DNA of 32,000 bases from the NCBI GenBank assembly GCA_024275415.1, contig JAJRZD010000043.1:1-32000 (forward strand). The letters are read 5' to 3'. Under the pieces are notes generated by a model. The model did not search any database, was not told the DNA's origin, and saw only the letters and a program-made list of their open reading frames with translations. This DNA comes from an archaeon (GTDB taxonomy: Archaea; Asgardarchaeota; Thorarchaeia; Thorarchaeales; Thorarchaeaceae). The position numbers and the translations under genes are program-made. Of this stretch, positions 3,958-26,816 are shown in pieces. Numbering within the stretch: position 1 is the first letter of the stretch; each line of letters begins with the position of its first letter.

Positions 3958-4005
3958 AGGGGGAGCCCAATAATCTCCAGTGTTTCAAAACAAGGATGTG
4001 TATTC

Positions 4006-5019: not shown

Positions 5020-5034
5020 AAGGAGAATGTTCTG

Positions 5035-6246: not shown

Positions 6247-6254
6247 GTATAGTC

Positions 6255-7028
6255 CTACTCTCGTAGCACCTCATCGAATCGACCACTAAGACTGGGTATC
6301 TCTGTGACGGATTTTCGAGGTGGCGTAGGATATGCGATCTTGCTGTGTGTCAGTCCAGTTTCAATCAGGGTCACTGCTGTCCATATACCTACCACATATG
6401 GATCCAAGATGGGTACTTTATACCTCATAGAGACCTCTGAAAGATTGAGATGATGTGAAAGTCCCGTGCAACCCAGAATGACAACATCCGCTCCATCGTC
6501 CTTGATTGCACGTTCTACTAGTGAAGAGAATTGCTCTTGGACAGCCGCAGGGTTACGCTCAATCTCTAAAACAGGTACGTCAAGAAATCGTACACTTGCA
6601 CAAAAGGAATCCAGCCCTTCTCTACGCACACCTTCGTGCATACATCTCACAAGCGATTGTCCTTGCACAGTGATTATGCTAAACCGGGTTCCTAATGTTA
6701 ATGCGAGATGCAAAGACGCTTGTCTGATTCCAATAACTGGTATGGACGTTATCTCTCGGGCAGCAGAGAGGACTGGATCACACGCACAATCAATGACAAT
6801 AGCATCTACTTCTCTTTCATCTGCGTGAACTATCTGTTCTAAGATGAATGGCGCATTGTATGCTTCGTCAGCATGAGACTCCACACTATGAGTACCGAAT
6901 CTAGCGAACATATTGAGGATCTCGTATCCAGAAGGGGTATGTTTCTTTACGAATTTAGTTTTTGCTGGATCCGTCAGCCAGTCTTTTCCGGTAACCCCAA
7001 TAAGTGCTATTTTTCTCATTTTCTGCAC
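6255..7028 (-). CDS. Asp/Glu/hydantoin racemase family protein (hydantoin/allantoin racemase-like; start may be ATG 7019)
   Basis: Two catalytic Cys motifs IDCACDP and ILGCTG; PILDP near the C-terminus. Confidence 0.88.
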   Translation of the reverse strand: MQKMRKIALIGVTGKDWLTDPAKTKFVKKHTPSGYEILNMFARFGTHSVESHADEAYNAPFILEQIVHADEREVDAIVIDCACDPVLSAAREITSIPVIGIRQASLHLALTLGTRFSIITVQGQSLVRCMHEGVRREGLDSFCASVRFLDVPVLEIERNPAAVQEQFSSLVERAIKDDGADVVILGCTGLSHHLNLSEVSMRYKVPILDPYVVGIWTAVTLIETGLTHSKIAYPTPPRKSVTEIPSLSGRFDEVLRE

Positions 7029-7048
7029 CAGAAAAGTTTTGATTCTAC

Positions 7049-8167
7049 CTAGTGCAGGTTCCCAATAATCTCTTCCATTGGCTTGTACTCGATCTCTGGG
7101 TGTCCATAACGTTCGGGGGAAAATGCTTTGCGACCAATATTGGTACTTCCGGCATATCTGAGTCGTTCATGAGCCTCAATAGCGGTGATGGTCACTGGGA
7201 CACCTTTCTTCAAGTCTGCACTCATTATTCCATGGCCGGTTTGTGGGTCGTGCAAGCAGATGAGGTCTGGAAATATGACAACAGGCTTCTCATCACAGCG
7301 GAGCATCATATACTCGTTCTTGACTGTGATTTCGAGCTTTCCATCGACTTCATCTGAATCAATAGTGACTGATACATGCCAGTGCCCAGCTCTATCTTCG
7401 CCATGTACATTCTCGACCACGCCAGATGCGAGATACTTGCCATCCATGATATCAAGGAATGCATCGATTGGATTATTGCCAGCTGCATTGGCATCTCGAA
7501 TTGCCCTACCAATCTCTATCGATTTTGATATGCTATGAGGAATCACAGATTTCTTCAGCTGTGCTCCAGTCTGGAAATAATGATTGTTTGCACCTGCACC
7601 CCCATCATTGACAACAGTGAACCTGCCAATCTCATCAGCCAGTGCAGGAGAAGTTGTTTTTTCTACTATGATTACACTGCCATTCTTGGTAACGACAGGC
7701 ATCGGGCACAAAGGTATATCGAATCCAATGAATGAAACCATTTGCGTTTCGGGTGCTGAACGACCAAGCCCATCACCATCCACAGTTGTGATACCTGCAC
7801 GTGCAGCAAGGGACAGCATGACTGTTGTATTCGTACCACCTAGCTCGAAGGGAACTAGATGATCTACTTTCTTACCAGCAACCTTCTCAGAAATCTGCAT
7901 GGCTTCAAACAGCTCGTATCGACTCTCCCACGCATTGAGCATGTCACCAATTGATGTGAACGCCTTGACAGAGCCCATGTAGCCGCCACATACAATGAAC
8001 GCGTCATCGTCAACCTCATCCGGGGGGATTATCTCGTAGACCCTTCCGCGTTCGTAGTCCCAATCGACCATTGGCTTTCCGAAACCTACAGGATCGCCTC
8101 CGCCGCCTGTTCCGAGGATGCCGACTCCGGTGAGCATGTCATATGCATTCTCTTTGGTCAGTTTCAT
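7049..8167 (-). CDS. DUF917 family protein, paralog 1
   Basis: GILGTGGGGDP, ELGGTN, DGDGLGRSAPE, VKNEY, IFPDLI. Confidence 0.88.
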   Translation of the reverse strand: MKLTKENAYDMLTGVGILGTGGGGDPVGFGKPMVDWDYERGRVYEIIPPDEVDDDAFIVCGGYMGSVKAFTSIGDMLNAWESRYELFEAMQISEKVAGKKVDHLVPFELGGTNTTVMLSLAARAGITTVDGDGLGRSAPETQMVSFIGFDIPLCPMPVVTKNGSVIIVEKTTSPALADEIGRFTVVNDGGAGANNHYFQTGAQLKKSVIPHSISKSIEIGRAIRDANAAGNNPIDAFLDIMDGKYLASGVVENVHGEDRAGHWHVSVTIDSDEVDGKLEITVKNEYMMLRCDEKPVVIFPDLICLHDPQTGHGIMSADLKKGVPVTITAIEAHERLRYAGSTNIGRKAFSPERYGHPEIEYKPMEEIIGNLH

Positions 8168-8180
8168 TCGGAACTACTCC

Positions 8181-8981
8181 CTATTCCGCTTTGCGTTTTC
8201 CATCCATAGACTGTACTATTTTGTACCATCTCTTCTTCGTCCCAATCTTAGCTCTGGAATTCCAGCTCCGTGTCTTGGGAGCCTCTTCTATCATCCTATG
8301 CAGCTTGTTGGCACGTTCGATGACAAGATCCTTCTGTTCTTGGGTCAATTGTTCAATGGTTGGGACGAAATTGACAAGTTTCTTGATGTTCTCAGTGACA
8401 GTGTAATAGAAGCCCCAATCATCGCTGAGGATGCTCGTTATGTATGCACCATTCACCATCGAGTCGTCATCATCTTCGGATACATCATAAGTGAGAAACG
8501 TAATGACAAGATCGTAAAGATCCTTAGCATTTATCTCAACAATCTGTGTTTTCTCTAAAAAGAGGTCAGCCAAGGAGATGGTGTATTTGTCGATTTCGAG
8601 TCGCTGGGGTTTCTTGAAGTCAATCAGATGACAGAAATCAAGATGGTCATAGAAGACATCAATCTTCCAACCAGTGTGAGGATTCATGAATAGGTCTCTT
8701 AGAGTGGATGCTCGCGCGAACCCAGGTGGTATCCACTTGTATCCAAGGTCATCGCGAAACAGGTTGATTATGTTCTTTTGATTCTTATAATATCCAACAA
8801 AGTCGATATCCGTTGGAACGCGTCCCATGCTCTCGTGAAGTTCGACGAGATCAGGGCATTTGATTCTGAAGGCCAAACATCCGATTACACGCAGAGGCCA
8901 GCCGTTCTCTGCAGCTGCATTCACAATTCTGATTGCCTCTTGCTGGTGGTCTTCAAGGATTTCACCATATTTCCCTGACAC
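8181..8981 (-). CDS. Uncharacterized nucleotidyltransferase-fold protein
   Basis: N-terminal LRVIGCLAF...PTDIDFV and a third acidic strand KIDVF match the pol-beta NTase hG..DhD...D pattern; helical C-terminus. Confidence 0.6.
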   Translation of the reverse strand: MSGKYGEILEDHQQEAIRIVNAAAENGWPLRVIGCLAFRIKCPDLVELHESMGRVPTDIDFVGYYKNQKNIINLFRDDLGYKWIPPGFARASTLRDLFMNPHTGWKIDVFYDHLDFCHLIDFKKPQRLEIDKYTISLADLFLEKTQIVEINAKDLYDLVITFLTYDVSEDDDDSMVNGAYITSILSDDWGFYYTVTENIKKLVNFVPTIEQLTQEQKDLVIERANKLHRMIEEAPKTRSWNSRAKIGTKKRWYKIVQSMDGKRKAE

Positions 8982-9130
8982 TTTTTACATCTCCAAGTCC
9001 AATGTCACAGAGTGAAAGTATAATATCACTTTAATATCTATCGAATTCGAATCTGATTTCTTAAAGGCTAGACCACTAAACTATTAATGTAGGTTAGAGA
9101 ATATTATGCTTAATCGGAGGAAAAAAACCG

Positions 9131-10081
9131 ATGAGTCTAAGGATATTTCAGGCATGTGACCCCCATGGCAGCATGAAAACATGGCACCAGATGTGCCGAG
9201 CACCAAAAGTGTTCAAAGTGGATGTTGCCATGATGTGTGGCGACCTGACAGGAAAAGCGATAATGCCGATAATAAAAGAAAAGGAAAACAGATGGTTTGC
9301 TCAACCTTTTGGTCGCAAGAAAGTATTCAAGAAACAGAAGGATCTTGACAAATTCATCGAGTTCACCTCCACAGAGGGATATTATCCTATCGTTCTCGAC
9401 CCTGACGAGTTGGCAGAACTCAAGGAGGACAGTGGAAAGGTGAAATCTCTCTTTGATAGGCTTATGACAGAGCGAATGAAACAATGGCTTGACCAAGCGA
9501 CAGAGATGATTCCTGAACATGTGGTACTTGTGGTCAACCCCGGGAATGATGATCCGTGGGTGATCGATGATATCATAAAGGAACACGAACGCACAATATA
9601 CCCATTGAAACAAGTCGTTGAGATTTCTGATAAACACAAACTAATCTCGTTAGAATACGTGAACTCGACACCTTGGGACACGCATCGCGAATGCGACGAA
9701 GAAGAGTTGATGGAACGGCTTGAAGCCGAGTTCGCAAGAGTGACTGAATCTGATTACGAGAACCTCCTTTGTAACTTTCACGCTCCTCCGCATGGTTCCG
9801 GTCTTGATACTGCTCCCAAGCTTACTGAAGATCATCGAATCACCTATTCAGGAGGCTTTGCCCTTACCGAAGCTGTAGGAAGTACAGCTGTCAGAGAGGT
9901 CATCGAGAAGTATCAGCCACTTGTTGCTATGCACGGGCATATTCACGAATCAGTTGGATTCACAAGTATTGGACGGACACTTTGTGTTAACCCTGGATCC
10001 GAATACCGTGAGGGAATCCTGAAAGGGATGCTAATCACAATTGATGACCGAAAAGCCACAGCAGGCAGAGTTGAACTCTAA
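9131..10081 (+). CDS. Calcineurin-like metallophosphoesterase (Icc-related)
   Basis: All five motifs present: DPH, CGD, PGNDD, FHAPP, HGHIHE. Confidence 0.9.
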   Translation: MSLRIFQACDPHGSMKTWHQMCRAPKVFKVDVAMMCGDLTGKAIMPIIKEKENRWFAQPFGRKKVFKKQKDLDKFIEFTSTEGYYPIVLDPDELAELKEDSGKVKSLFDRLMTERMKQWLDQATEMIPEHVVLVVNPGNDDPWVIDDIIKEHERTIYPLKQVVEISDKHKLISLEYVNSTPWDTHRECDEEELMERLEAEFARVTESDYENLLCNFHAPPHGSGLDTAPKLTEDHRITYSGGFALTEAVGSTAVREVIEKYQPLVAMHGHIHESVGFTSIGRTLCVNPGSEYREGILKGMLITIDDRKATAGRVEL

Positions 10082-10096
10082 CATTTTTGGGAAGTC

Positions 10097-10114
10097 GGGA
10101 CCTGAAAAGGTCCC
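10097..10114 (+). terminator. Perfect 7-bp hairpin with GAAA tetraloop after the phosphoesterase gene (terminator or RNA-stability element)
   Basis: GGGACCT-GAAA-AGGTCCC, 16 nt after the stop codon. Confidence 0.4.
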
Positions 10115-10201
10115 ATCTAATTTCTTAAACCCATTAGATTTAAAGTGCCGTATGGATGACATTTTCTTATAGATTGATTAAATACGAATTGGTGTTCATC
10201 G

Positions 10202-11320
10202 ATGAGATTTGATTTAAGGGACAGGACAGATGTCGAAGATCTGACAACCGGTTGTACATTCTTTGGAACTGGTGGTGGTGGTGATAAAAAAGTTGGTCTG
10301 GATATGCTCTATCCTCATGTAGATACAGGAAAGACAATCAAAATAATAGATGTCGCAGATGTGAATGATAATGATTGGGTGGCATGCCCATACTACTCTG
10401 GAACGATTGCACCCCCGACCGCCGAAGTAGAGGCATCAAGAACAAGATTTCCCTGGGATTCCTATGAACAAGAACTTGATATCGGACTCTCTATCATCGA
10501 AGACTATCTTGATATCAAGTTCCAATCTGTCGCTCCATTTGAGCTGGGGGGTGTCAATACTCCCGCGCCCATAGACGCAGCGACCAAACATGGGATTCAA
10601 TGTGTGGATGGCGATTATGCTGGACGCGCAGTGCCTGAGATATGTCAGAATACAGTCTGCATTGAAAAATTCCCTATGGCGCCCCTTGCACTGGTCGATT
10701 GGTATGGGAACAGGACACTTGTTCAGGATATAGTGAATTACGAGATGGGCGAACGCATCTCTAAAGCATTAAGCGAGTCTGCATGGGGCCGAGTTGGCAA
10801 TGTGGGGTTTCCATTGCAAGGGGCGGAATTCAAGAAAGTAATCATCCCAGGTACGTTATCGACAAGTTACAATATTGGGCGCTTGATACGCAAAAGCAGA
10901 GAAGATGGAGATGATCCAGCAGAAAGAATTGTTGAAAATCACGGTGGTTGGGTTATGTTCAAGGGGGAAGTAGTGGAGAAGAAATGGGAGAATAAAGCAG
11001 GATATATGTGGGGTGAAACGCTTGTCAAGGGCATAGGAGACGTACAAGGTAGGAAACTGAGAATCTGGTTCAAAAATGAGAATCATATCACATGGTTAGA
11101 TGACTCTCCTTGGGTCACAAGTCCTGACCTTATCATCGTGATTGAACAACATACTGGCGAGCCACTAACAAACACCGACATCAACCCTGGTGACAATGTG
11201 AGTGTGATTGGTATGAAAGCAGCGCACCCGATGTTCCGTACGGCTGGAGGGCTTGCAGTTCTCGGGCCAAAACACTTCGGTTTTGATATGACATATAGGC
11301 CAATCGAAGACCTAGTGTGA
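10202..11320 (+). CDS. DUF917 family protein, paralog 2
   Basis: TFFGTGGGGD, ELGGVN, DGDYAGRAVPE, FKNEN, TSPDLI. Confidence 0.88.
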   Translation: MRFDLRDRTDVEDLTTGCTFFGTGGGGDKKVGLDMLYPHVDTGKTIKIIDVADVNDNDWVACPYYSGTIAPPTAEVEASRTRFPWDSYEQELDIGLSIIEDYLDIKFQSVAPFELGGVNTPAPIDAATKHGIQCVDGDYAGRAVPEICQNTVCIEKFPMAPLALVDWYGNRTLVQDIVNYEMGERISKALSESAWGRVGNVGFPLQGAEFKKVIIPGTLSTSYNIGRLIRKSREDGDDPAERIVENHGGWVMFKGEVVEKKWENKAGYMWGETLVKGIGDVQGRKLRIWFKNENHITWLDDSPWVTSPDLIIVIEQHTGEPLTNTDINPGDNVSVIGMKAAHPMFRTAGGLAVLGPKHFGFDMTYRPIEDLV

Positions 11321-11327
11321 TGAATCA

Positions 11328-12029
11328 CTACAACACTATGTAGCCTGTATAGTGTTTCCTATACCAATTTGGCTCATTAGCGAAACGAACCGACTCATAG
11401 TCATTGTTGTAGAATTTGATAGGGTTCTTATCGGGATCCTCATCGGTCTTCTTCATGAGTCGTCGTGTATGGTGAATTGTTGTCTGAGCCCATCGCTTTA
11501 ATGCTAGCTTTTCTCTCCGCAACAAGGAGGGGTTATCCTCCCAGTACTTGTCAATGGCGCGGGCGATTTGTAGGTTGTAGTAGTGTCCGGCAGTCCACGC
11601 CACGACCATAACGAACCCCGCAAACACAGCAAACCCGATGGCATAGGGGATGTAATCAGTGAGCGCAAAGAAAAATGTGAGTACTGTTGCAGGAACAGCA
11701 AACGTGATCAGGATAAGAGATAGAAACCGGAGCGCCTGTCGCCGCGAATACATTTTTTTCACATCGGGAACCTGCGGAGATATCGCCGCAAATCGATGCA
11801 GAACCGTCCTCACAATCTTCCATTGTTTGACGAATGACCTGCCAATCCTGCCTTCTCCGACAGCATTCTCGATGAATGTCAGGTCAAATGCCCGATGTAT
11901 CCTGTAGCCATCGAATACAGTTATTATGTCCTTGCTCCATTTCAGATCAAGTCCTGATGGATCAAACTCGTATGTGTCCAAGTTAATCTTCGTGGGAGGT
12001 TTTTTCGAACCCGGTTTACCTTTACTCAA
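11328..12029 (-). CDS. Hypothetical membrane protein (2 TM helices)
   Basis: 233-aa ORF with a central hydrophobic hairpin; family not recognised. Confidence 0.7.
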   Translation of the reverse strand: MSKGKPGSKKPPTKINLDTYEFDPSGLDLKWSKDIITVFDGYRIHRAFDLTFIENAVGEGRIGRSFVKQWKIVRTVLHRFAAISPQVPDVKKMYSRRQALRFLSLILITFAVPATVLTFFFALTDYIPYAIGFAVFAGFVMVVAWTAGHYYNLQIARAIDKYWEDNPSLLRREKLALKRWAQTTIHHTRRLMKKTDEDPDKNPIKFYNNDYESVRFANEPNWYRKHYTGYIVL

Positions 12030-16423: not shown

Positions 16424-17620
16424 CTAATCATCAGGGATATAGTAAGGGTCAAGAATCTCCTCGTCAACGATGCCAGCACTAACCGCGACAAGCTCTGCAA
16501 TGTCCAACACTCTGATTGGTGCATCAGCTTTGTACACTGCATGAGTCAGGTTCATCTCACACGCTGGACAGATGGTTGACAGTATCTCTGCGTCAGTTGC
16601 TTGGACATGAACCAGGCGTTCCGCTGAAACCTTTTCTGAGTGTTCTGAGAACATTAGCTTCACACCGCCACCGCCTCCACAACAGAAAGCATCTGCTCTC
16701 ACACGATCCATCTCAACAAACTTGATTCCAGGGAGGGCTTTGATGACCTTGCGAGGGGATTCATAAATCTCTTTATACCGTCCAATCTCGCACGGGTCAT
16801 GGTATGTAACCACGACATCAATCGAGTTCTTCAGTTCCAACTTTCCGCGTTCTATGATCTCTTCGAGCACCTCGCTGGTATGTTTCACTTTGAAGGGCAG
16901 TGTTTCGACCCCTAGGATGCTTGGGTATTCCTCATCGAACGCCCTAAAACAACTCGGGCACGGTGTGATGATTTCCTTCACACCACGCTCAGAGAGCATA
17001 TCGACATAATCCTGCACCCACTTGGTCGCATGTTCCATTTTCCCAGAAATCCAGAAGGGTGTTCCACAACACTTCTGGTCGTCGCCCAAGAAGTCAAGCT
17101 TGTATCCAGCAGCTTGCAAAACACGTACGAGGATGTTCGTCTTCTCCTTGAAGCGATGACTTGCAAGACACCCTGGATAGAACAGAATGCCTGAACCAGA
17201 CTCGAATTGAAGCCCACTAGCCCATGCACTATGTGCTTTGGCACTTTCCTGAAAGATATTCCCGGACTCATAGGCACTGTCAGCCATCTGGGCCCCCTCG
17301 ACTGGGATTGGGATCCCTTGCTCTACAAAGTCCTCACGCATTGCCTTCGTGATAGCAATCACATCGATCTGTGCTGCTTTCTTGCATTCCTCGCGACACC
17401 TCGCACACATGAAACACCCGAAGATTCGCTCCGCCAGATCCTCAGAGTACTTGAGTTTGCCTTCAAGGATGCCTCGGGCTATAGCCATCCGACCCCGAGC
17501 AGTAGAAGACTCCCAGTATTGCGTGAAGACCTCTGGACAGCGCTCATTGAATTCCTGACCCCGACAGAAATTGCACCTGCCGCAGGCATAGATCATATCC
17601 TTATATTCGTCAATCCTCAT
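16424..17620 (-). CDS. Fe-S oxidoreductase with 4Fe-4S dicluster plus two CCG domains (GlcF/GlpC/HdrD-like)
   Basis: CGRCNFC..CP, CFMCARC..EC, YPGC, CCG, PCPSC, YHDPC, FCCGGGGG, CPAC; 4-nt overlap with the upstream FAD gene. Confidence 0.9.
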   Translation of the reverse strand: MRIDEYKDMIYACGRCNFCRGQEFNERCPEVFTQYWESSTARGRMAIARGILEGKLKYSEDLAERIFGCFMCARCREECKKAAQIDVIAITKAMREDFVEQGIPIPVEGAQMADSAYESGNIFQESAKAHSAWASGLQFESGSGILFYPGCLASHRFKEKTNILVRVLQAAGYKLDFLGDDQKCCGTPFWISGKMEHATKWVQDYVDMLSERGVKEIITPCPSCFRAFDEEYPSILGVETLPFKVKHTSEVLEEIIERGKLELKNSIDVVVTYHDPCEIGRYKEIYESPRKVIKALPGIKFVEMDRVRADAFCCGGGGGVKLMFSEHSEKVSAERLVHVQATDAEILSTICPACEMNLTHAVYKADAPIRVLDIAELVAVSAGIVDEEILDPYYIPDD

Positions 17621-18996
17621 TGCAGTTCCTCCTTCGGGATCATGATACCTCGTTGAAGGATATTCTTCGGGTCAAGAGTCTTCTTCAGCATCTTCAACAG
17701 CCTGTAATAACCAGTGTCATGGGACGCAAGGTACGGCATGAGTCCATCCTTTCCCCCAATGCCATACGGCACAAGTGGGCCCTCATGACATATCTCATTG
17801 ATTTCATTTGCCAGTTTGATAATCTCATCCCATTCCTCGGGTTCTTTGTAATTTGTGACCATAAATGCCAACCAAGAACGGGGCACGACTTGACCACCGA
17901 ATCCGGCTTTCTTGTAGCCCCTCTTCTCTACCAGTTCTTCCTTCCACACTTTGTAGAGAAAGCGTATTTTGTCGATGGCGATGGTACCAGCCCCGAAGAA
18001 ATGCCAGACCCCAGCGGCAAAGATATCGGTTAATCCTGTCAGTATCCTGTCGAAGTAGTCGTGTGCCGGGGCTGGATCCATACTCTCATAGCCATGCTCT
18101 TTGAGCCATTGAAGAATCCTCCTCTTCCTGTGATCGATTATTTCCTCTTCATAGCCAAACACATCCATCATCACGAGAAAGGCATCAGGCTCATTTGGGT
18201 CAACCCAGAGATAGATTCCCTGAAGGTACTCGTCTCCCACATGACGATTGATGAAATGTCCGAACTCTATAACATCATCTAACGAAGACATCATAGTGAG
18301 CAGTCGCTCCTTAAAATTACTCACAGGTCTTATCCGTAGCGTGAGCTCAGTGCAGACACCAAGGACTCCTTCTGCACCGATGAACATCCCCGCAAGATCA
18401 GGCCCTAAGCATTGACGCTTGATTTTACCAGCGCCTGGCCAGGCTGCACTCCCCGTTTCGACGATATCACCATTCGGTAATACCATCTGCAGGGTTATCA
18501 CATCAGAATCTCCGTGGTACCCGAATTTGGCGGTTGAGTGAGGACCACTCCCTGCCTTCATCACTGAGCCCCCTACAGTCATCGCAGGGCCTCCCGCTTC
18601 ACTACAGAGATATGTAAGTCCCTGTTTTCGAAGCTCCCTATCTAGTTTTGAGAAGGTGCAACTTGGCTGCACAGTTACCGTGAGGTTCCTCTCATCAATG
18701 TCCAATATCTGATTCATCCTTGCCATATCGAGAAGGATGCCTGGCTCTTGGGGGAGATACGCATCCCAGTGAGAGGTGCCGCCCCCGCGGATATAGACAG
18801 GGATGTCATGTTCATTTGCAATCCGGAGAATCTCTTGGATTTCCTCCTTGGTTTCAGGCATGACTACATGAGTCGGGAACTTCTGTCGTGCAGGGCTAAG
18901 GTCTCGGGAGTACGGTATTATGTCAAAATCCTTGTCAGTGACTCTTTCGGGCCCAACAATCGATGACAACAGACTAGTGATGTCAACATCAGCCAT
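17617..18996 (-). CDS. FAD-binding oxidoreductase, VAO/GlcD/D-lactate dehydrogenase family
   Basis: P..VVMPETKEE, IRGGGTS, LDMARMNQILDID, TVGG, VLPNGDIV, GAEGVLGVCTELTL, C-terminal LKKTLDPKNIL. Confidence 0.9.
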   Translation of the reverse strand: MADVDITSLLSSIVGPERVTDKDFDIIPYSRDLSPARQKFPTHVVMPETKEEIQEILRIANEHDIPVYIRGGGTSHWDAYLPQEPGILLDMARMNQILDIDERNLTVTVQPSCTFSKLDRELRKQGLTYLCSEAGGPAMTVGGSVMKAGSGPHSTAKFGYHGDSDVITLQMVLPNGDIVETGSAAWPGAGKIKRQCLGPDLAGMFIGAEGVLGVCTELTLRIRPVSNFKERLLTMMSSLDDVIEFGHFINRHVGDEYLQGIYLWVDPNEPDAFLVMMDVFGYEEEIIDHRKRRILQWLKEHGYESMDPAPAHDYFDRILTGLTDIFAAGVWHFFGAGTIAIDKIRFLYKVWKEELVEKRGYKKAGFGGQVVPRSWLAFMVTNYKEPEEWDEIIKLANEINEICHEGPLVPYGIGGKDGLMPYLASHDTGYYRLLKMLKKTLDPKNILQRGIMIPKEELQ

Positions 18997-19101: not shown

Positions 19102-20268
19102 GTGCATACGAAAAAGTGGAAGGTCTTTGTCATGAAGGCTCGTGAGAGATTCTACAAGGCGATGGAACACGAAGAACCAGACCGCGTCCCGTTAGACATC
19201 TGGATAACCCCCGCAGCATATGAAACTACCAAAAAGCATCTGGGTCTAGACGTTCCAGAAGAGCAGGAATGGGGAATAATGGCACCTCTTAAAGTTTCAG
19301 AGGAATTCCTCAGACGGCTACACATTGATTTTAGACGTGTGTACATGAATCCGGCAGCCGGTTTCAAGATGACGACCTACCCTGATGGCTCGACTGACAC
19401 AGAGTACGGTTTCCGGGGAAAATGGTTCGGCCCGTATTGGGAAATCACTTATCACCCATGGGCTGAGTTCACCGAGGTCGAGCAGGTTCTGCAGTACGAA
19501 TGGCCAGACCCAGAAGACCCTTCTCGGATGGAGGGCGTCACAGAATGGGCGAAACACCTGCACGAGGAAACAGACTATGCAGTGGTGGGTATGGTCGGTG
19601 GCCCCTGGGGTGTCTTCGAGATCAGTGCCCATTATATGCGTGGATTCCAGAAATTCTTGCTGGACTTGATGAAAAGACCTGATCTGGCAGACGCCATGAT
19701 GAAAAAATCGATGGCTCTGGCTTTGGACATGAATCGAGTCTTCCTCGATGAGATAGGCGACTATCTTGACATTGTTCTGGTCGGGGATGATCTTGGACAT
19801 CAGCATGGGCTGCTTATGAGTCCAAAAATGTACCGGGAGCACATCAAGCCATTGCATAAGAGAATCTATGGCGACATCCACAGACGTGCACCTCATGTCA
19901 AGATTCTGTATCATAGCTGTGGAGCAATTGAGCCGATGATTAATGATCTCATCGAGGTAGGAGTGGACATCCTGAACCCTATCCAGCCATTGGCGAAAGG
20001 AATGGATTCCTTCGGCTTGAAGCAAAGATACGGGGACAGGCTGTCATTCCACGGTGCCATAGACCTTCAACATGCAATGTCTGAGAAGGGAACCATAGAG
20101 GATCTCCATCGAGAGATAGACATACGAATCACAGCATTGGCTCCTGATGGAGGTTACATCTTTGCGCCTGCTCACAATATTCAGCCTGACTCGAGTGCCG
20201 AGAAAATCATCGAGATGTATGACTATGCGGAGAGAAGAGGACAGTATCCAATAATGCCTATGGAATAG
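19102..20268 (+). CDS. Uroporphyrinogen decarboxylase-family protein (MtaA/CmuA-like; start probably ATG 19132)
   Basis: EPDRVP, GDDLGHQHG, YHSCG, LNPIQP, FHGAID, GGYIFAPAHNIQ. Confidence 0.85.
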   Translation: MHTKKWKVFVMKARERFYKAMEHEEPDRVPLDIWITPAAYETTKKHLGLDVPEEQEWGIMAPLKVSEEFLRRLHIDFRRVYMNPAAGFKMTTYPDGSTDTEYGFRGKWFGPYWEITYHPWAEFTEVEQVLQYEWPDPEDPSRMEGVTEWAKHLHEETDYAVVGMVGGPWGVFEISAHYMRGFQKFLLDLMKRPDLADAMMKKSMALALDMNRVFLDEIGDYLDIVLVGDDLGHQHGLLMSPKMYREHIKPLHKRIYGDIHRRAPHVKILYHSCGAIEPMINDLIEVGVDILNPIQPLAKGMDSFGLKQRYGDRLSFHGAIDLQHAMSEKGTIEDLHREIDIRITALAPDGGYIFAPAHNIQPDSSAEKIIEMYDYAERRGQYPIMPME

Positions 20269-20920
20269 GTCGTTCTTTATGCAGGTCGTGAGGGTCGTTT
20301 CCCTCTTTGAGCCGCTCCTCCCACCAGCGGTCAGTCCCCACGACTTCCTCCGCAGCATCAAGGACTTTGTCTACCACATCTATTGGGATTACCACAACGC
20401 CATCACCATCACCAAAGACCAAATCCCCAGGATGAACCGTCACACCACCACATACGATTGGCTTGTTCATTGATTCCATGTCCATCCGCCCGCGCATCGT
20501 TCCCGGATGGCGACCCCTCGCATAGACGGGGAACTGCATCCTGTCGATGTCGCTTATGTCCCTGACGGTACCATCTATCACGGCACCCCTGACTCCGAGT
20601 GGCAATCCTATCCTTGTCAGCACCTGCCCCCATGCAGAGCAGTCGTTGGCACCTGATGTGTCAATCAAGATGACATCACCACTAGACGCCTTTGTTGCAA
20701 GGGACATGAAGAGATCCAGCTGATGTTCGTCATACGGGTGATTCACTGGAGATCGTACGAGCTTGCCAGTCCTTGCAAAGCCAATCATTTGGCATGTCTG
20801 TGTTAAGGGACGGATACCTGAGTCCATGCACACTCTCCGCAATCCAATGGTGTCTGCTGCATCCGAGATAGCTGCTGCATAGAGGTTCGATGCCCTCCTG
20901 ATAATCTCGTTCTTGTCCAC
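20258..20920 (-). CDS. RraA family / HMG-CHA aldolase-like protein
   Basis: AISDAAD, GDVILID, SAWGQ, GAVIDGTVRDI, VHPGDLVFGDGDGVVVIP. Confidence 0.88.
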   Translation of the reverse strand: MDKNEIIRRASNLYAAAISDAADTIGLRRVCMDSGIRPLTQTCQMIGFARTGKLVRSPVNHPYDEHQLDLFMSLATKASSGDVILIDTSGANDCSAWGQVLTRIGLPLGVRGAVIDGTVRDISDIDRMQFPVYARGRHPGTMRGRMDMESMNKPIVCGGVTVHPGDLVFGDGDGVVVIPIDVVDKVLDAAEEVVGTDRWWEERLKEGNDPHDLHKERPIP

Positions 20921-20927
20921 TTGTACA

Positions 20928-21410
20928 TCATTCCTTACTTTTCTCGAATCTGTATATACAGTACTTGTCCCCTCGCATCATACATCTTGTCAACAGCAAT
21001 CTTGTACTCGGATCAACAGCCTGTCCAATTCCTTCATCGATTTTCGTGACCCAGTGGCATATATCTTCCTTAGCACTCAATGACCTAAACCCCTCAAGCC
21101 AGGGACAGTGGGTGACCTTGATTTCCATCTCGTCTGGAGTGTCCAATATCTTCTCAAGATCGAACCCAAAATAGGGGTGTGCCTGCTCGAAGAAGTCGTA
21201 GATAGATGATAGGTCGCCTTTTCGTAACGTCCCATTCTGAATGCCATCAGTGCCGAGATGAAGTCCGTGGATCCGATTTGCTTCTGCGATTTCCTGTAGA
21301 CCGGATTCGCCCGCAATTCTCCGAATGGCTTCAACGTACAATGCATGAGCGCTTGCTAGGGTGAACATGTTCACTTGTCGGACATCTTCAGCCGTTGGTT
21401 TCTGCATCAA
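20928..21410 (-). CDS. L-2-amino-thiazoline-4-carboxylate hydrolase-like (V4R-related) protein
   Basis: VTHCPW, EDICHW...D, LTRCMMRGDKYCIYRF Cys pattern. Confidence 0.7.
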   Translation of the reverse strand: MMQKPTAEDVRQVNMFTLASAHALYVEAIRRIAGESGLQEIAEANRIHGLHLGTDGIQNGTLRKGDLSSIYDFFEQAHPYFGFDLEKILDTPDEMEIKVTHCPWLEGFRSLSAKEDICHWVTKIDEGIGQAVDPSTRLLLTRCMMRGDKYCIYRFEKSKE

Positions 21411-21528: not shown

Positions 21529-22689
21529 GTGCTAGCAAGACGGAATCAGCATATCATGGCGAGCGAGATTAGACTTATTTTCAACAAGATTGTGGGACGG
21601 TCTGACATCGTCGACCTCACAGTCGGACTTCCTGACTACGACACACCAGACTACATCAAAGAAGCCGCAAAGGACGCGCTGGATCAGGGCTATACTCGTT
21701 ACACTCACAATGCTGGGTATATCGAAACAAGAGAAGCCATGTCAAAAAAGCTGAAGCATGACAATGGGATCACCGCAGATCCTGAGAGCGAGGTCATGAT
21801 GACCGCAGGAGGGATGGGCGCATTGCTCCTTGCAAACCTCGTTCTTATCGACCCTGGTGATGAGGTCATCTATCCGGATCCGGGATTCGTGAGCCATCCT
21901 GCACATATCGAGTTGGCAGGTGGAATTGGAGTGCCAGTGAAGCTGAAAAAGGCAAACAATTTTGGCATGTCAGCAGATGATGTCGAGGCATTGATCACCG
22001 ACAAGACTAAGGCGCTCGTCCTCAATTCACCTAATAATCCGACAGGTGGTGTCACGCCAGAAAAGGAGCTACGGAAGATAGCAGACCTAGCCGAACAGCA
22101 CGATTTCTATATACTCGCAGACGAGGCCTATGAGAAATACGTTTACGATGGGAAAAAGCCGAGCTTCATAGGGTCGTTCCCGGGGATGATGGAACGGACA
22201 ATCTCCATTTTCTCACTATCAAAGTCCTATGCCATGACAGGATGGCGAATTGGTGCTGTGGCGGGCCCTAGCGAGGTCGTGCAGGCGATGGTGAAGCTAC
22301 AGGAACATGTTCTGGCTATGCCCACATCAATCGCACAGAAGGCAGCAGAGGCAGCTGTTACTGGATCACAAGACTGTATTAGAGATATGCTGGCTACATT
22401 CTCAAGGCGAAGAGACCTCATAACCAAGGGGCTGAATGCTATTGAAGGTGTAGAGATGAAACCACCTGGTGGCGCATTCTATGCTTTCCCTGACATGTCT
22501 GCATTCAACATGTCATCGCAGGAGTTAGTGATGAACATTCTGGACAATACTAACGTGGCAACAGTTCACGGGTCTGCCTTTGGGAAATACGGCGAAGGAT
22601 TCCTACGATTATGTTATGCCGTATCTACAGAAAGAATCGAGGAGGCACTATCACGATTAGACTCATACCTCCACAAGCTTCTGAGATGA
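21529..22689 (+). CDS. PLP-dependent aminotransferase class I/II (AspAT-like; start probably ATG 21556)
   Basis: LNSPNNPTG, DEAYE, SLSKSYAMTGWRIG (PLP lysine), GAFYAF, GEGFLRL. Confidence 0.93.
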   Translation: MLARRNQHIMASEIRLIFNKIVGRSDIVDLTVGLPDYDTPDYIKEAAKDALDQGYTRYTHNAGYIETREAMSKKLKHDNGITADPESEVMMTAGGMGALLLANLVLIDPGDEVIYPDPGFVSHPAHIELAGGIGVPVKLKKANNFGMSADDVEALITDKTKALVLNSPNNPTGGVTPEKELRKIADLAEQHDFYILADEAYEKYVYDGKKPSFIGSFPGMMERTISIFSLSKSYAMTGWRIGAVAGPSEVVQAMVKLQEHVLAMPTSIAQKAAEAAVTGSQDCIRDMLATFSRRRDLITKGLNAIEGVEMKPPGGAFYAFPDMSAFNMSSQELVMNILDNTNVATVHGSAFGKYGEGFLRLCYAVSTERIEEALSRLDSYLHKLLR

Positions 22690-22739
22690 TGGTGTCCCAT
22701 TCGAAAAGTAAAAGTAGGAATTCTTAGAATGACTTTAAG

Positions 22740-25085
22740 ATGACTTTAAGAACAAATCGCTTGAAGGAGAACGTGCTTTTCTCAGAACCAACGATATCCT
22801 CAGAGCGGGCTAGGATCTTCACCGAGTCAGTCAAGGAGAATGAGCGCGACCCAACCGGAATCCGACTGGCAAAAGCTTTCGCTGATGTTCTTGACCAGAT
22901 GACTATTCGGATTGAGGATGGTGAAATGATTGTTGGGAATATGGGCCCCACTCCACGCTCCTGTCAGGTCTTTCCGGAATATAGCTGGACTTGGATAGCG
23001 GACGAGCTTGACCGCCTTGAACATAGAAGGACAGAGCGATTTGTAATCTCAGACGATGATAAACGAACTCTTCGTAGGGTGTTCGAGTACTGGAAAGGAA
23101 AAAGCACCGCAGAAATAGCGATGGGAAAGATACCTGAGCAATCCAAGAAGGCATCGAAGGCGGGACTCTTCACGATTGGTGCACCTGGAACAGGGATTGG
23201 ACATGTCATCGTAGACTACCAACGGGTAATTAGAGTTGGAATAAAAGGACTCCTAGCAGAGATTGCTCAAAGGAAGCCTGATGCCGATGAGAACGCAAGA
23301 ATCCTCTATGAGGCGATGGAGATACAGCTTGATGCGGTCATAAGATTCGCACATCGTTTTAGCACACTTGCCAGTGACATGGCATCCATCGAGGAGGAGC
23401 CAGTTCGACAAGCAGAACTAAAGGAGATCTCAAGGATTTGCCGAGTCGTTCCCGAGAATCCTGCGAAAACATTCCACGAAGCATTACAATCATTTTGGTT
23501 CATCCACCTGCTGACACAGATAGAGTCGAACGGGCATTCAATGTCAACGGGTCGCTTCGACCAGTACCTATACCCATTCCTTGAGCAAGATCTTGAAGAA
23601 GGTAGGCTTTCAGAAGATGACGCAATCGAACTCCTTGAGATGCTATGGATCAAGTTCAGCTCGTTAATCAAGCTGAGGAACGAGTACTATAGTATTGCAT
23701 TCGCAGGGCACCCGATGTTCCAGAACCTTACGCTGGGTGGACAGGACAAGAATGGGAACGACGCCTGCAATCTCCTGACAAAACTTGCATTACAGGCGAC
23801 ATCCAACATCCAAGTCACACAGCCGACGGTATCATTCCGCTGGCATGAAAAGACACCAAGATCGATGAAAGAACAGGTGATTGACCTCGTATCCAAGGGT
23901 CTTGGGATGCCAGGGATTTTCAACGACGAAGTAATCATCCCAATGATGAAGGAGAAGGGAACAGACCCCAGAGAATGCTACAACTACTCGATCCTTGGCT
24001 GTGTGGAACCGATAATCGAAGGGAAATCGGATCCACGACCAAACATCGGTTATGTCAACCTTCCCAAGATATTGGAAATCACACTAAACAATGGCATAGA
24101 TCCAAAGACTGGAGAGCAGGTAGGACTGCAAACAGGAAATCCCACTGAATTCAGCAGTTTCGAAGACCTCTGGAACGCATATCAGGAACAGATTGACTAT
24201 GCAATAGAGATGCTCACTGAGGCTGACCGGGTGGCTGCGAGGGTACTCGCTGAGTACAAACCAACACCGTTCATCTCATCATTGCTCCAAGGCTGTATTG
24301 AAAACGGGAAATCCATGCAGGATGGGGGTGCTGTCTATAATTCAGGCGGAATCATGGGTGTTGGACTGGCAATTGCAGCAGACTCGCTGGAGAACATCCG
24401 TTTCTTCGTCTTTGACAGGAAAGAGGTATCCATGAAGGATTTGCTGGATGCTCTTTCGAGGGACTTCGATGGTTATGAAATTCTCCGTCAGAAGCTCCTG
24501 AAACATCCTCGAAAATACGGGAATGACATCGAGGATGTCGATTTCCTAGCGCGGGACACAGGTAGGACATTCTGCAACGCTATTCAGAAACGTATGACCA
24601 CGAGGAACGGATCTTATCATGGAGCGCTGTTCTCCGTTTCGATGTACATCCCTCAAGGAGAAGTGCTTGGTGCGACACCAGATGGTCGGAGGGCTGGACT
24701 CATGGTATCCGACGGGGTTTCACCGGCACAGAACAGAGACCTCAACGGCCCCACTGCAGCGATGAAATCAGTGGCAAGACTCGATCATGGGCTGTGCTAC
24801 AACGGGACTCTCTACAACATGAAGTTCACTCCAGACCTGTTCGCATCGCCAGCGAACCGTGAGAAGTTCTCCCAATTGATTGATGCATATTTCAAGCTAG
24901 GCGGACTCCACATCCAGTTCAACGTCGTGTCACGAGAAGTACTTGAGGACGCAAAGACCCATCCAGAGAACCACAGGAACCTCATAGTAAGGGTCGCAGG
25001 ATACAGTGCCTTCTTCGTAGAACTGGATCCCTTTGTGCAGGACGAGATAATTGCTCGGACTGAATTCACTGCAGGTCACCTTTGA
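22740..25085 (+). CDS. Glycyl radical enzyme, PFL-like/diol-dehydratase-type eliminase
   Basis: 781 aa; ESNGHS, GRFDQY, FQNLTLGG, GCVEP (Cys421), TPDGR, RVAGYS (Gly754). The single-Cys GCVE motif argues against true PFL. Confidence 0.93.
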   Translation: MTLRTNRLKENVLFSEPTISSERARIFTESVKENERDPTGIRLAKAFADVLDQMTIRIEDGEMIVGNMGPTPRSCQVFPEYSWTWIADELDRLEHRRTERFVISDDDKRTLRRVFEYWKGKSTAEIAMGKIPEQSKKASKAGLFTIGAPGTGIGHVIVDYQRVIRVGIKGLLAEIAQRKPDADENARILYEAMEIQLDAVIRFAHRFSTLASDMASIEEEPVRQAELKEISRICRVVPENPAKTFHEALQSFWFIHLLTQIESNGHSMSTGRFDQYLYPFLEQDLEEGRLSEDDAIELLEMLWIKFSSLIKLRNEYYSIAFAGHPMFQNLTLGGQDKNGNDACNLLTKLALQATSNIQVTQPTVSFRWHEKTPRSMKEQVIDLVSKGLGMPGIFNDEVIIPMMKEKGTDPRECYNYSILGCVEPIIEGKSDPRPNIGYVNLPKILEITLNNGIDPKTGEQVGLQTGNPTEFSSFEDLWNAYQEQIDYAIEMLTEADRVAARVLAEYKPTPFISSLLQGCIENGKSMQDGGAVYNSGGIMGVGLAIAADSLENIRFFVFDRKEVSMKDLLDALSRDFDGYEILRQKLLKHPRKYGNDIEDVDFLARDTGRTFCNAIQKRMTTRNGSYHGALFSVSMYIPQGEVLGATPDGRRAGLMVSDGVSPAQNRDLNGPTAAMKSVARLDHGLCYNGTLYNMKFTPDLFASPANREKFSQLIDAYFKLGGLHIQFNVVSREVLEDAKTHPENHRNLIVRVAGYSAFFVELDPFVQDEIIARTEFTAGHL

Positions 25086-25140
25086 CTTTAACAAAAATTT
25101 AAGAACAATGGGGCTTCTTTAGCTTCCTCGTGAGATAAAA

Positions 25141-26136
25141 ATGGGCTTTGATGTGCTGACTTTTGGAGAAGTGATGCTTCGGCTATCCCCACCCGATTTT
25201 ATGAGGATCGAGCAAACTGACAAGTTCAATGCTCATGCCGGAGGGGCAGAGATGAATGTTGCAGTGGCATGTTCACGTCTTGGTCTTTCCTCAGCATATG
25301 TCACCAAGCTAGGTGATAATTCGATTGGACATTTTATCAGAAACCAAGCTCGTATGCATGGCGTTGATACATCCAACATCTTATGGGATCCCGACAGTCG
25401 TTGTGGAGTTTACTTTGTCGAGTTCGGGGCTGCTCCTAGAACCAACAGGGTGATCTACGACCGTAAGCACTCTGCCATCAGCAAGGTCAAACCAGGGGAG
25501 GTGGAGTGGGATAGGCTATTCAAAGAAACATCTTTGTTCCATGCTAGCGGTATTACTCCAGCCCTCAGCAAGTCGTGTGCCGATACGACTCTCGAAGCCC
25601 TCAAATCCGCAAAAGCGAATGACACTGTTGTTTCGTATGATGTGAACTACCGTGGCAAGCTCTGGACTCCAGAAGAAGCAAACAAGTTCACTGAGCCCGC
25701 ATCCGAACTCATTGACATCCTCATCACAACAGAAGAGGACACAAAGGTCGTCTACAGCATCGAGGGGGATAGTTATGAGGAAGTGGCTAAGAAACTCGTC
25801 GAGAAGTTCGGGTTCAAGGTCGTGGTCATCACGCTGCGCGAAACCCCCAGCGTGTGGCGGAACAAATGGTCGGTCTTCGCCTATTCCGAAGGAAAGGTGT
25901 ACAAGAGCCCAGTCTACGATGTGGAAGTCGTCGATAGACTTGGCGGTGGCGACTCGTGCAGTGCAGGTTTCATCTATGGATACCTGAAGTTCAATGACCT
26001 GCAAATGGCTGTAGACTTCGGAGCGGCATTTTCGGCACTCAAACATTCAGTCCCCGGAGACCTCGCGTTCATCAACAAGGAAGAGGTAGAGAAGCTGATG
26101 AAGGGGAGAGAAAGAGGGTTGAGGATAGAGAGGTGA
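25141..26136 (+). CDS. kdgK: PfkB-family sugar kinase, 2-keto-3-deoxygluconate kinase-like
   Basis: FGEVMLRLSP, GGAEMNVA, YDRKHSA, DVNYRGKLW, VDRLGGGDS; adjacent to eda. Confidence 0.85.
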   Translation: MGFDVLTFGEVMLRLSPPDFMRIEQTDKFNAHAGGAEMNVAVACSRLGLSSAYVTKLGDNSIGHFIRNQARMHGVDTSNILWDPDSRCGVYFVEFGAAPRTNRVIYDRKHSAISKVKPGEVEWDRLFKETSLFHASGITPALSKSCADTTLEALKSAKANDTVVSYDVNYRGKLWTPEEANKFTEPASELIDILITTEEDTKVVYSIEGDSYEEVAKKLVEKFGFKVVVITLRETPSVWRNKWSVFAYSEGKVYKSPVYDVEVVDRLGGGDSCSAGFIYGYLKFNDLQMAVDFGAAFSALKHSVPGDLAFINKEEVEKLMKGRERGLRIER

Positions 26137-26816
26137 ATGTAATGGGCTGGAATAAGGAAGATGCAATGAATCTCATCAAAGAAACAGGAATCATCCCGAT
26201 CATCCGTGTGCAGAACCCAGATGATGCCATAATGGTTGCCGATGCGTTCATAGAAGGCGGTATCAACATCATAGAGGTCACATTCAGCGTGCCCAATGCT
26301 ATAGAAGTAGTCGAAGAGCTGTCAAACAGGTTAGGGGACGAAGTGCTCATCGGAACAGGAACCGTCATGGATGGTGTTACCGCCCGAAGAGCGATATTAG
26401 CAGGAGCGGAATTCATCGTCAGCCCCATTTTCTCTCGCGACCTGATAGAAACTGCCAGAAGGTATGCAAAGCCCTGTTTCCCAGGGGCACTCACGCCTAC
26501 TGAAATCGTCACTGCCTATGAGATGGGTGCAGACGCAGTCAAGGTGTTTCCCGCAGGGAACGTAGGTGGTGCAGCTTACATCAAAGCTGTCCGTGCTCCA
26601 ATTTCACACATCCCGCTCATCCCAACTGGTGGGGTGAACTTGGAAACCGCTGGACCACTGCTTGATGCAGGCGCGTTCGCCCTTGGTGTTGGAAGCGCTA
26701 TCACTGACAAGAAGGCAATCGCAGAAGAAAAGTGGGAGATAATAACTGAAAATGTGAGGGAATTCCTCGATGTTGTGAAAGCACATCGAGGACAATCCGA
26801 TGCAAGGATACTATGA
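26133..26816 (+). CDS. eda: KDPG/KHG aldolase (start probably ATG 26142)
   Basis: IIEVT, IGTGTV, FIVSP, PGALTPTEI, VKVFPA (Schiff-base Lys), IPTGGV; GAGGTGA SD overlapping the kdgK stop. Confidence 0.92.
   Translation: MNVMGWNKEDAMNLIKETGIIPIIRVQNPDDAIMVADAFIEGGINIIEVTFSVPNAIEVVEELSNRLGDEVLIGTGTVMDGVTARRAILAGAEFIVSPIFSRDLIETARRYAKPCFPGALTPTEIVTAYEMGADAVKVFPAGNVGGAAYIKAVRAPISHIPLIPTGGVNLETAGPLLDAGAFALGVGSAITDKKAIAEEKWEIITENVREFLDVVKAHRGQSDARIL

Follow-up and report, generated by a model that had tools for sequence, protein, structure and literature searches.

Candidate radical sugar-acid dehydratase in a three-gene cassette of Thorarchaeota-type Asgard archaea

The window analysed here is a stretch of 32,000 nucleotides (contig C21:1-32000) from G000, the metagenome-assembled genome (MAG) of a Thorarchaeota-type Asgard archaeon (3.5 Mb in 127 contigs, 92.9% complete). 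It carries, head to tail on the plus strand, the genes of a glycyl radical enzyme (GRE), a kinase of the KdgK type and the aldolase Eda. The best explanation of our findings is a single, dispensable catabolic cassette, GRE-KdgK-Eda, whose GRE represents a new family of glycyl radical 1,2-eliminases. That the three enzymes work in one pathway is, in our judgement, highly probable. By analogy with known radical dehydratases, the GRE may be the eliminase that makes a 2-keto-3-deoxy sugar acid for KdgK and Eda, a proposal whose case we see as evenly balanced.

The cassette was followed in 53 loci from different species-level genomes and in four additional fetched contigs. Of the 44 loci whose flanks were long enough, about 40 show the order aminotransferase-GRE-PfkB-Eda, set in a wider neighbourhood of at least two layouts. 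We also examined 72 genomes of the class, each at least 80% complete, counting as GRE orthologs proteins of at least 60% identity. The GRE ortholog and KdgK are both present in the same 53 genomes and both absent from the same 19, and presence and absence are both found within 7 genera. Genomes without either gene include G008, a single contig of 3.2 Mb, and G003, in 10 contigs and 98% complete. The preliminary description of this DNA had left room for a linkage unique to one genome; the roughly 40 loci of different species, with 53/53 genomes carrying both genes and 19/19 neither, settle that point.

Two members of the same genus as G000, G015 and G013, preserve the order of the window minus exactly the 4.1-kb GRE-KdgK-Eda block (22690-26810): aminotransferase, thioredoxin, EamA, two membrane proteins and adenine deaminase follow one another. 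In G002 the GRE lies on one contig and aminotransferase-KdgK-Eda on another, both being present. In G004 (97% complete) the GRE has three in-frame stops and KdgK has two; the aminotransferase is intact. Clean deletion, separation and joint decay thus mark GRE, KdgK and Eda as one unit that is kept, moved, decayed or deleted together.

The Pfam domains of the GRE are PFL-like (PF02901, 716.6 bits) and Gly_radical (PF01228, 116 bits), and the protein matches the NCBIfam model TIGR01774 at 738.6 bits (cut-off 678). In a ranking of solved structures, glycerol dehydratase comes first (664 bits), ahead of propanediol dehydratase (634) and an unnamed GRE, 9rco (623); further down stand PflD (515), YbiW (484), the benzyl- and methylalkylsuccinate synthases MasD (315) and TutD (300) and true PFL (165). 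It stays under all the NCBIfam equivalog cut-offs: 605 against 1100 bits for HypD, 577 against 1050 for CutC, 590 against 1000 for HpfG, 542 against 1000 for HpsG and 597 against 1109 for PflD. For this reason the GRE is predicted to be an eliminase-type enzyme outside every characterised specificity group.

All close homologs, 63-73% identical, are encoded in MAGs that bear the labels Thorarchaeota, Hermodarchaeota, Odinarchaeota or Promethearchaeota. In the genome collection, all carriers belong to one family-level lineage (f1) and are spread over 16 genera; clustering of a library at 50% identity puts the homologs into one cluster, whose nearest outside representative is 43% identical. From these comparisons the GRE family is sharply bounded and lineage-specific, confined to one Thorarchaeota-type family. 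Given both this gap and the equivalog scores, the possibility raised earlier that the GRE might cluster with a characterised enzyme can be set aside.

A review of June 2026 from the Drennan laboratory lists six C-O cleaving GRE eliminases, acting on glycerol, propanediol, dihydroxypropanesulfonate and three hydroxyprolines, and none on sugar acids; it also states that every PFL-like GRE whose function has been characterised is from bacteria (2026 review, PMC13450708). The statement in the preliminary description that no characterised GRE with sugar-acid dehydratase activity is known agrees with this list. Our search for literature in which a GRE is linked with 2-keto-3-deoxy acids, or with the combination of aminotransferase, kinase and aldolase, returned only work on sulfoquinovose and sulfonates.

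The GRE has a single catalytic cysteine, Cys421, in the loop GCVEP (420-424), with Glu423 two residues further on: this invariant pair is the CxE motif. The glycine loop RVAGYSA, with the radical residue Gly754, is kept in 119 family members, and the same 119 sequences share invariant Cys421, Glu423, His155, His266-Ser267, Arg433 and Asn435. The GRE aligns end to end with the B12-independent glycerol dehydratase of Clostridium butyricum (DhaB1, 1r8w/1r9d) and the GRE-type 1,2-propanediol dehydratase of Roseburia inulinivorans (5i2a), and has in common with them the Cys-x-Glu loop, the histidine by which the departing hydroxyl is protonated, a His-Ser pair and the RVxG motif. In the 1r8w alignment, Glu435 and His164 of glycerol dehydratase, catalytic residues with proton-transfer roles (PMC13450708), fall on Glu423 and His155. 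The superfamily and the CxE logic are also those of HypD, HpfG, HpsG, CutC, IslA, PflD/YbiW and HplG; PflD and YbiW, too, feed a sugar-phosphate aldolase. All six C-O cleaving eliminases have CxE, as does CutC, and in the C-S lyases there is an equivalent Glu (PMC13450708).

Other positions differ. The segment after the Cys loop reads GKSDPRPN in the GRE and GKTEGWHD in glycerol dehydratase, so that Trp445 is replaced by Arg433 and Asp447 by Asn435. Further substitutions turn Asn156-Tyr157 into Ala148-Pro149 and Tyr640 into Phe631, and all of these replacements are invariant in the family. Tyr339 corresponds to His or Phe (His324 here) and His446 to Pro or Gln. The net change is minus one acid and plus one base; since both lie beside the catalytic loop, they suggest that the substrate of the GRE is anionic. 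The C-S lyases bind their anion by an Arg/Gln/Arg triad, which is not at the corresponding segments of the GRE: its sole new Arg is the one that follows the Cys loop.

The nearest representative with equivalents of both Arg433 and Asn435 is P0122 (42% identity). Its gene cluster, on two metagenome contigs (L084/L085), contains a sugar ABC transporter, two GRE/activase pairs, an FGGY kinase and an aldehyde:ferredoxin oxidoreductase. The outside relatives thus support, at the level of gene context, a substrate that would be a polar, anionic small molecule. The L084/L085 cluster also includes a ThiS-like gene, a D-2-hydroxyacid dehydrogenase and a cupin-type sugar-phosphate isomerase.

A plain glycerol or propanediol dehydratase was considered and rejected: PRPN replaces GWHD, the pocket residues are changed and there are no diol-pathway neighbours. 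Neither 1,3-propanediol dehydrogenase nor a microcompartment shell family was found in the window or in about 50 related loci. Unlike those dehydratases, the GRE has KdgK and Eda as partners, an archaeal host and no adjacent activase.

The reaction that we propose is modelled on the direct elimination described for glycerol dehydratase (2026 review, PMC13450708). The thiyl radical of Cys421 would take a hydrogen from the carbinol carbon beside the carboxylate, that is, C2 of an aldonate or of a close analogue. Glu423 would deprotonate the C2 hydroxyl and His155 would protonate the leaving C3 oxygen, with the substrate carboxylate held by Arg433 and Asn435. Once the C3 oxygen is lost and the hydrogen returned, the product would be a 2-keto-3-deoxy sugar acid; KdgK would phosphorylate it and Eda would split the resulting compound into pyruvate and glyceraldehyde 3-phosphate. 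We infer which class of substrate is used, where the hydrogen is taken from, what Arg433 and Asn435 do and which activase is involved.

The kinase has a Pfam PfkB domain (152 bits), and its best solved relative is KdgK of Thermotoga maritima (TM0067, 2afb; 273 bits, E 4e-80); against NCBIfam equivalog models it scores 311 and 183 bits, under their cut-offs of 440 and 400, respectively. Eda exceeds the cut-off of TIGR01182 (191.6 bits for 156.05). Its best natural solved relative is the 2-keto-3-deoxy-6-phosphogluconate (KDPG) aldolase of T. maritima (1vlw/1wa3, 128 bits), a designed nanocage chain topping the list. KdgK and Eda are each present in a single copy in G000, where their genes are adjacent. 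In T. maritima, KdgK and Eda are supplied by conventional uronate and altronate/mannonate enzymes; those enzymes were not found in G000.

What is missing is a conventional dehydratase. Domain scans of the window detect no aldonate dehydratase of the IlvD/Edd, enolase-family or UxuA/UxaA type, which bears out the earlier remark that no conventional gluconate dehydratase is encoded there. The whole of G000 gives no match to IlvD/Edd, UxuA, UxaA/GarD, UxaC (uronate isomerase) or KduI, and has a single weak enolase-superfamily match (MR_MLE_C, 34 bits) in a frame of 459 amino acids. In the class-wide set of 72 genomes, UxuA never occurs (0/72), whole-set counts for IlvD/Edd and for strong enolase-superfamily matches being 6/72 and 18/72. 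Because the conventional dehydratases are absent or rare, most cassette carriers have no known means of making 2-keto-3-deoxygluconate (KDG). Edd/IlvD, the enolase-superfamily gluconate dehydratase, UxuA and UxaA occupy the same place in the proposed pathway, delivering a 2-keto-3-deoxy acid to KdgK and Eda; they have unrelated folds and rely on Fe-S or metal-ion acid-base chemistry, whereas the GRE would use a protein radical. Of the idea that the GRE supplies this step, the gap itself extends from the window to the genome and to most relatives, and linkage and co-occurrence agree with it; gluconate as the specific substrate, the example first put forward, is improbable. As a separate observation, the lack of IlvD/Edd in G000 and its presence in only 6/72 relatives suggest that most of the lineage is without the usual route to branched-chain amino acids.

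No activase gene is present in the window, and none adjoins the GRE in about 50 related loci. G000 has one match to TIGR02494 above the cut-off (323.9 bits), a radical-SAM protein encoded at C30:79421-80284 next to a different GRE, a GNAT gene and an MFS transporter. Five genomes have the GRE ortholog as their only GRE match (E <= 1e-50), and in each of them we find one unlinked activase, 52-58% identical to that of G000. No activase was found in three genomes without a GRE match, nor in the genome of G004, where GRE and KdgK are pseudogenes. The simplest reading is that the GRE would be activated in trans by the single, shared C30 activase.

A second GRE paralog lies elsewhere in G000 (C23:3424-5781, locus L073). 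It is 37-38% identical to the cassette GRE and is interrupted by one in-frame TAA near the N-terminus, the longest clean open reading frame (ORF) starting at 3574 (735 amino acids); the genes of ribosomal proteins L3 and L4 adjoin it. Decay to a pseudogene, an error of assembly or a shorter start could each explain the stop.

Several points weigh against a sugar-acid dehydratase. The conserved aminotransferase upstream of the GRE is unexplained by a plain aldonate route and hints at an amino-bearing substrate, and P0121 and P0124, near relatives with Arg at the position of Arg433, stand in amino-acid contexts. Other anionic substrates (amino-aldonates, anhydro-aldonates, glycerate) fit the changes in the active site equally well. 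The comparison of pockets itself takes Asp447, Trp445, Tyr339 and Tyr640 (also Asn156) of glycerol dehydratase as substrate contacts, an assumption that we carry over from structure papers. An enolase-superfamily protein, potentially an acid-sugar dehydratase, is encoded in 16 of the 53 cassette carriers. In the conserved cluster we identified no upstream source of an aldonate: it has neither a sugar dehydrogenase nor a lactonase. Finally, because GRE and KdgK are usually adjacent, fragmented assembly accounts for part of their co-absence from MAGs, and related genomes are not independent samples; the deletion in G015 and G013, the separation in G002 and the decay in G004 escape this last objection.

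Candidate sources of the aldonate beside some loci led nowhere. A Zn-dependent alcohol dehydrogenase (ADH), SCP2, extra GlcD-like genes and inositol-1-phosphate synthase had appeared as leads to glucose or inositol oxidation; they were dropped because the ADH has no ortholog in G000 and the remaining genes are on another contig, C116.

The GRE might instead remove water from a small anion, either a diol or a hydroxy acid (for example glycerate, 3,4-dihydroxybutyrate or something resembling dihydroxypropanesulfonate), as a side branch or sink of the same sugar-acid metabolism, not as the source of KDG. The closest characterised enzymes, glycerol dehydratase, propanediol dehydratase and HpfG, all use three-carbon terminal diols, and a site that keeps His155, His266-Ser267 and Glu423, loses an acid and gains an Arg shows the minimal change to be expected in going from a glycerol to a glycerate-type site. 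We nevertheless hold this unlikely: KdgK and Eda would be left without a substrate source in a genome devoid of every conventional route, and the perfect co-occurrence with KdgK, the deletion of the cassette and the joint decay would go unexplained. Glycerate, moreover, is not an intermediate here, since a route through KdgK has pyruvate and glyceraldehyde 3-phosphate as its aldolase products.

The aminotransferase brings up another candidate, a 2-amino-2-deoxy-aldonate such as glucosaminate: abstraction of the C2 hydrogen and departure of the C3 hydroxyl would give a 2-imino-3-deoxy acid, which would hydrolyse to KDG and ammonia, and the aminotransferase would be part of this amino-acid-like metabolism. 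HypD provides a precedent for hydrogen abstraction next to nitrogen followed by loss of a β-hydroxyl (2026 review). The aminotransferase gene is directly upstream in about 40 loci and stays beside KdgK-Eda where the GRE has moved, an amino-acid-permease-like gene recurs some 9 kb away, and the two near relatives in amino-acid contexts point the same way. However, a GRE that releases ammonia needs no aminotransferase, and the latter is not dedicated to the cassette, because its ortholog persists in three genomes that lost it. Its solved relatives were deposited as general aromatic or aspartate aminotransferases, and in one of the two locus types the permease shows weak conservation (26-28% identity). 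An amino-aldonate substrate is accordingly rather improbable.

The gene order could also be inherited synteny without functional coupling. All carriers come from one family-level lineage and are not independent, and adjacency inflates co-absence where assemblies are fragmented. Such an origin is hard to reconcile with a unit that remains intact across at least two rearranged layouts, and with GRE and KdgK being present unlinked in G002, decaying jointly in G004 and disappearing cleanly together from G013 and G015; we regard it as quite improbable.

A further scheme would arrive at the same product, with the same downstream genes, by opening a ring: the GRE would be an isomerase-type, ether-cleaving enzyme like YbiW/PflD that converts an anhydro sugar acid (e.g. 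3,6-anhydrogalactonate from red-algal polysaccharide) to a 2-keto-3-deoxy acid. The isomerases HplG and YbiW also have a Glu two residues past the catalytic Cys (2026 review, PMC13450708), so CxE does not separate dehydratases from ring-opening enzymes; related MAGs are, by their record titles, from sediments. We still judge the scheme very improbable, as the GRE is nearer to the dehydratases than to PflD or YbiW (664 against 515 and 484 bits). No genes for agar or carrageenan breakdown turned up in the annotated loci, although no search was aimed at them.

Almost no credence is due to an alkyl- or benzylsuccinate synthase (Ass/Bss) unrelated to KdgK and Eda, even though one family member, P0049, is named 'Benzylsuccinate synthase alpha subunit' in its public record and GREs of Hermodarchaeota and Thorarchaeota have been called Ass/Bss, with 29-33% identity and the presence of just one Cys cited as grounds (Zhang et al. 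2021, PMC8163825): the 300-315 bits are less than half of the 664 for glycerol dehydratase, the GRE has the eliminase CxE motif, no annotated small-subunit gene lies next to it in the examined loci, and it tracks sugar-acid genes. The Ass/Bss identity, failing on similarity and on the small subunit, was therefore rejected for the family.

The features of the window that surround the radical eliminase and its two partners are collected in Table 1. The gene set first described, GRE-kdgK-eda, stands; the aminotransferase upstream, the recurrent divergent genes and the lack of an activase in the window had gone unmentioned.

Table 1. Genes of the cassette and its upstream neighbourhood in the window
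Feature	Position	Strand	Assigned from
GRE, 781 aa, 1,2-eliminase type	22740-25085	+	ORF call, Pfam, NCBIfam, alignment to 1r8w
PfkB-family KdgK homolog, 331 aa	25141-26136	+	Pfam PfkB, best solved relative 2afb
KDPG/KHG aldolase Eda	26133-26816, or 26142-26816	+	TIGR01182, start codons
Class I/II aminotransferase	21529-22689	+	Pfam Aminotran_1_2, 254.5 bits
RraA/HMG-aldolase-like gene	20258-20920	-	Pfam; half of divergent pair
Small four-Cys protein, ATC_hydrolase family	20928-21410	-	Pfam; other half of divergent pair
URO-D/MtaA-like protein	19102-20268	+	Pfam URO-D, 94.8 bits
GlcD-like FAD_binding_4 protein	17617-18996	-	Pfam, NCBIfam
CCG/Fe-S subunit	16424-17620	-	Pfam, NCBIfam

The aminotransferase gene ends 50 nt before the GRE, and 55 nt (25086-25140) separate the GRE from kdgK. 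The co-directional arrangement and the 55-nt gap are as reported before; the 4-nt overlap reported between kdgK and eda requires Eda to start at GTG 26133. If translation begins instead at the in-frame ATG 26142, as in the orthologs, a gap of 5 nt results; this is the more likely start. Two small elements lie within these junctions. An 11-nt direct tandem repeat, two copies of ATGACTTTAAG, spans the GRE start (22729-22750); the first copy makes an out-of-frame mini-ORF of four codons (ATG ACT TTA AGA TGA), and the stop codon of this frame shares bases with the true ATG at 22740. Within the gap between GRE and kdgK, about 40 nt 5' of the kdgK ATG, the A/T-rich element AAAAATTTAAG (25095-25106) might, from its composition, be an internal archaeal promoter.

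The aminotransferase has orthologs in 52 of the 53 cassette carriers, the exception stopping at a contig edge, and in 3 of the 19 non-carriers (G013, G015 and G005); at the deletion sites it is the gene left behind. Its best solved relatives, at 329 bits, are 1dju ('aromatic aminotransferase') and 1gd9 ('aspartate aminotransferase'), and G000 has several weaker paralogs (26-37% identity). It is associated with the cassette, separable from it and probably not essential.

In most loci the RraA-like, URO-D/MtaA-like and four-Cys genes recur next to the cassette. The RraA-like protein has an invariant Arg120-Asp121. The URO-D-like protein has an invariant His271-x-Cys273, which resembles the zinc site of MtaA-type methyltransferases, but a second invariant Cys is absent. 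The four invariant cysteines (102, 118, 143 and 151) of the small ATC_hydrolase-family protein suggest a metal or Fe-S site. Orthologs of the RraA-like and URO-D-like proteins were not found in five GRE-negative genomes; for this reason the two genes may belong to the cassette system. Solved relatives add no function for either, the URO-D-like protein having none at E <= 1e-5. Together with the aminotransferase, they would probably be accessory, serving for example a non-phosphorylative branch or the handling of pyruvate.

In loci with the order of this window, the GlcD-like/CCG pair is found within about 7 kb upstream of the GRE. The two proteins, which have many paralogs in G000, look like a putative 2-hydroxy-acid dehydrogenase of lactate or glycolate type, of uncertain linkage to the cassette. 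More speculatively, the RraA-like protein could be a class II aldolase and, together with a nearby aldehyde:ferredoxin oxidoreductase and the GlcD-like protein, could form a non-phosphorylative branch for 6-deoxy sugar acids.

As a check for displacement by a classical dehydratase next door, we inspected KdgK homologs of other Asgard families, G152 and G094 among them; no clean case of displacement emerged. The neighbours in G152 are an SDR and a β-keto-acid cleavage enzyme. At the G094 locus (L087, G094:C13:33200-53100, about 3398-11756), a KdgK-Eda pair (60% and 51% identical) comes after a HpcH/HpaI class II aldolase. Upstream of the latter by another 1.4 kb or so are two HGD-D proteins and two BcrAD/BadFG ATPases, a set that resembles benzoyl-CoA reductase or 2-hydroxyacyl-CoA dehydratase. 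The same sugar-acid genes may thus have another kind of radical enzyme system beside them, or the proximity may be a coincidence.

The proposed role of the GRE in supplying KdgK and Eda has a practical advantage: the cassette is experimentally tractable, with three downstream coupling enzymes, one candidate activase and Arg433 and Asn435 as targets for mutation. It is possible, if a little short of an even call, that the GRE is the first glycyl radical enzyme to dehydrate a sugar acid (or to open its ring as an eliminase), that a function can thereby be assigned for the first time to a PFL-like GRE from an archaeon, and that the cassette is a radical entry of Entner-Doudoroff type that replaces the conventional dehydratases. 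If so, it would open a new substrate class for radical enzymology and a new entry to Entner-Doudoroff-type catabolism of sugar acids, with a strictly anaerobic radical route standing in, in an Asgard lineage, for Fe-S, enolase-type and UxuA-type dehydratases. The Asgard GREs published as hydrocarbon-activating Ass/Bss (PMC8163825) would then need comparison with this GRE family. For the Thorarchaeota-type Asgard archaea, which are related to the lineage of the eukaryotic host and whose GREs have been read as activators of alkanes and toluene (PMC8163825), the cassette would represent a concrete, testable carbohydrate-fermenting trait.

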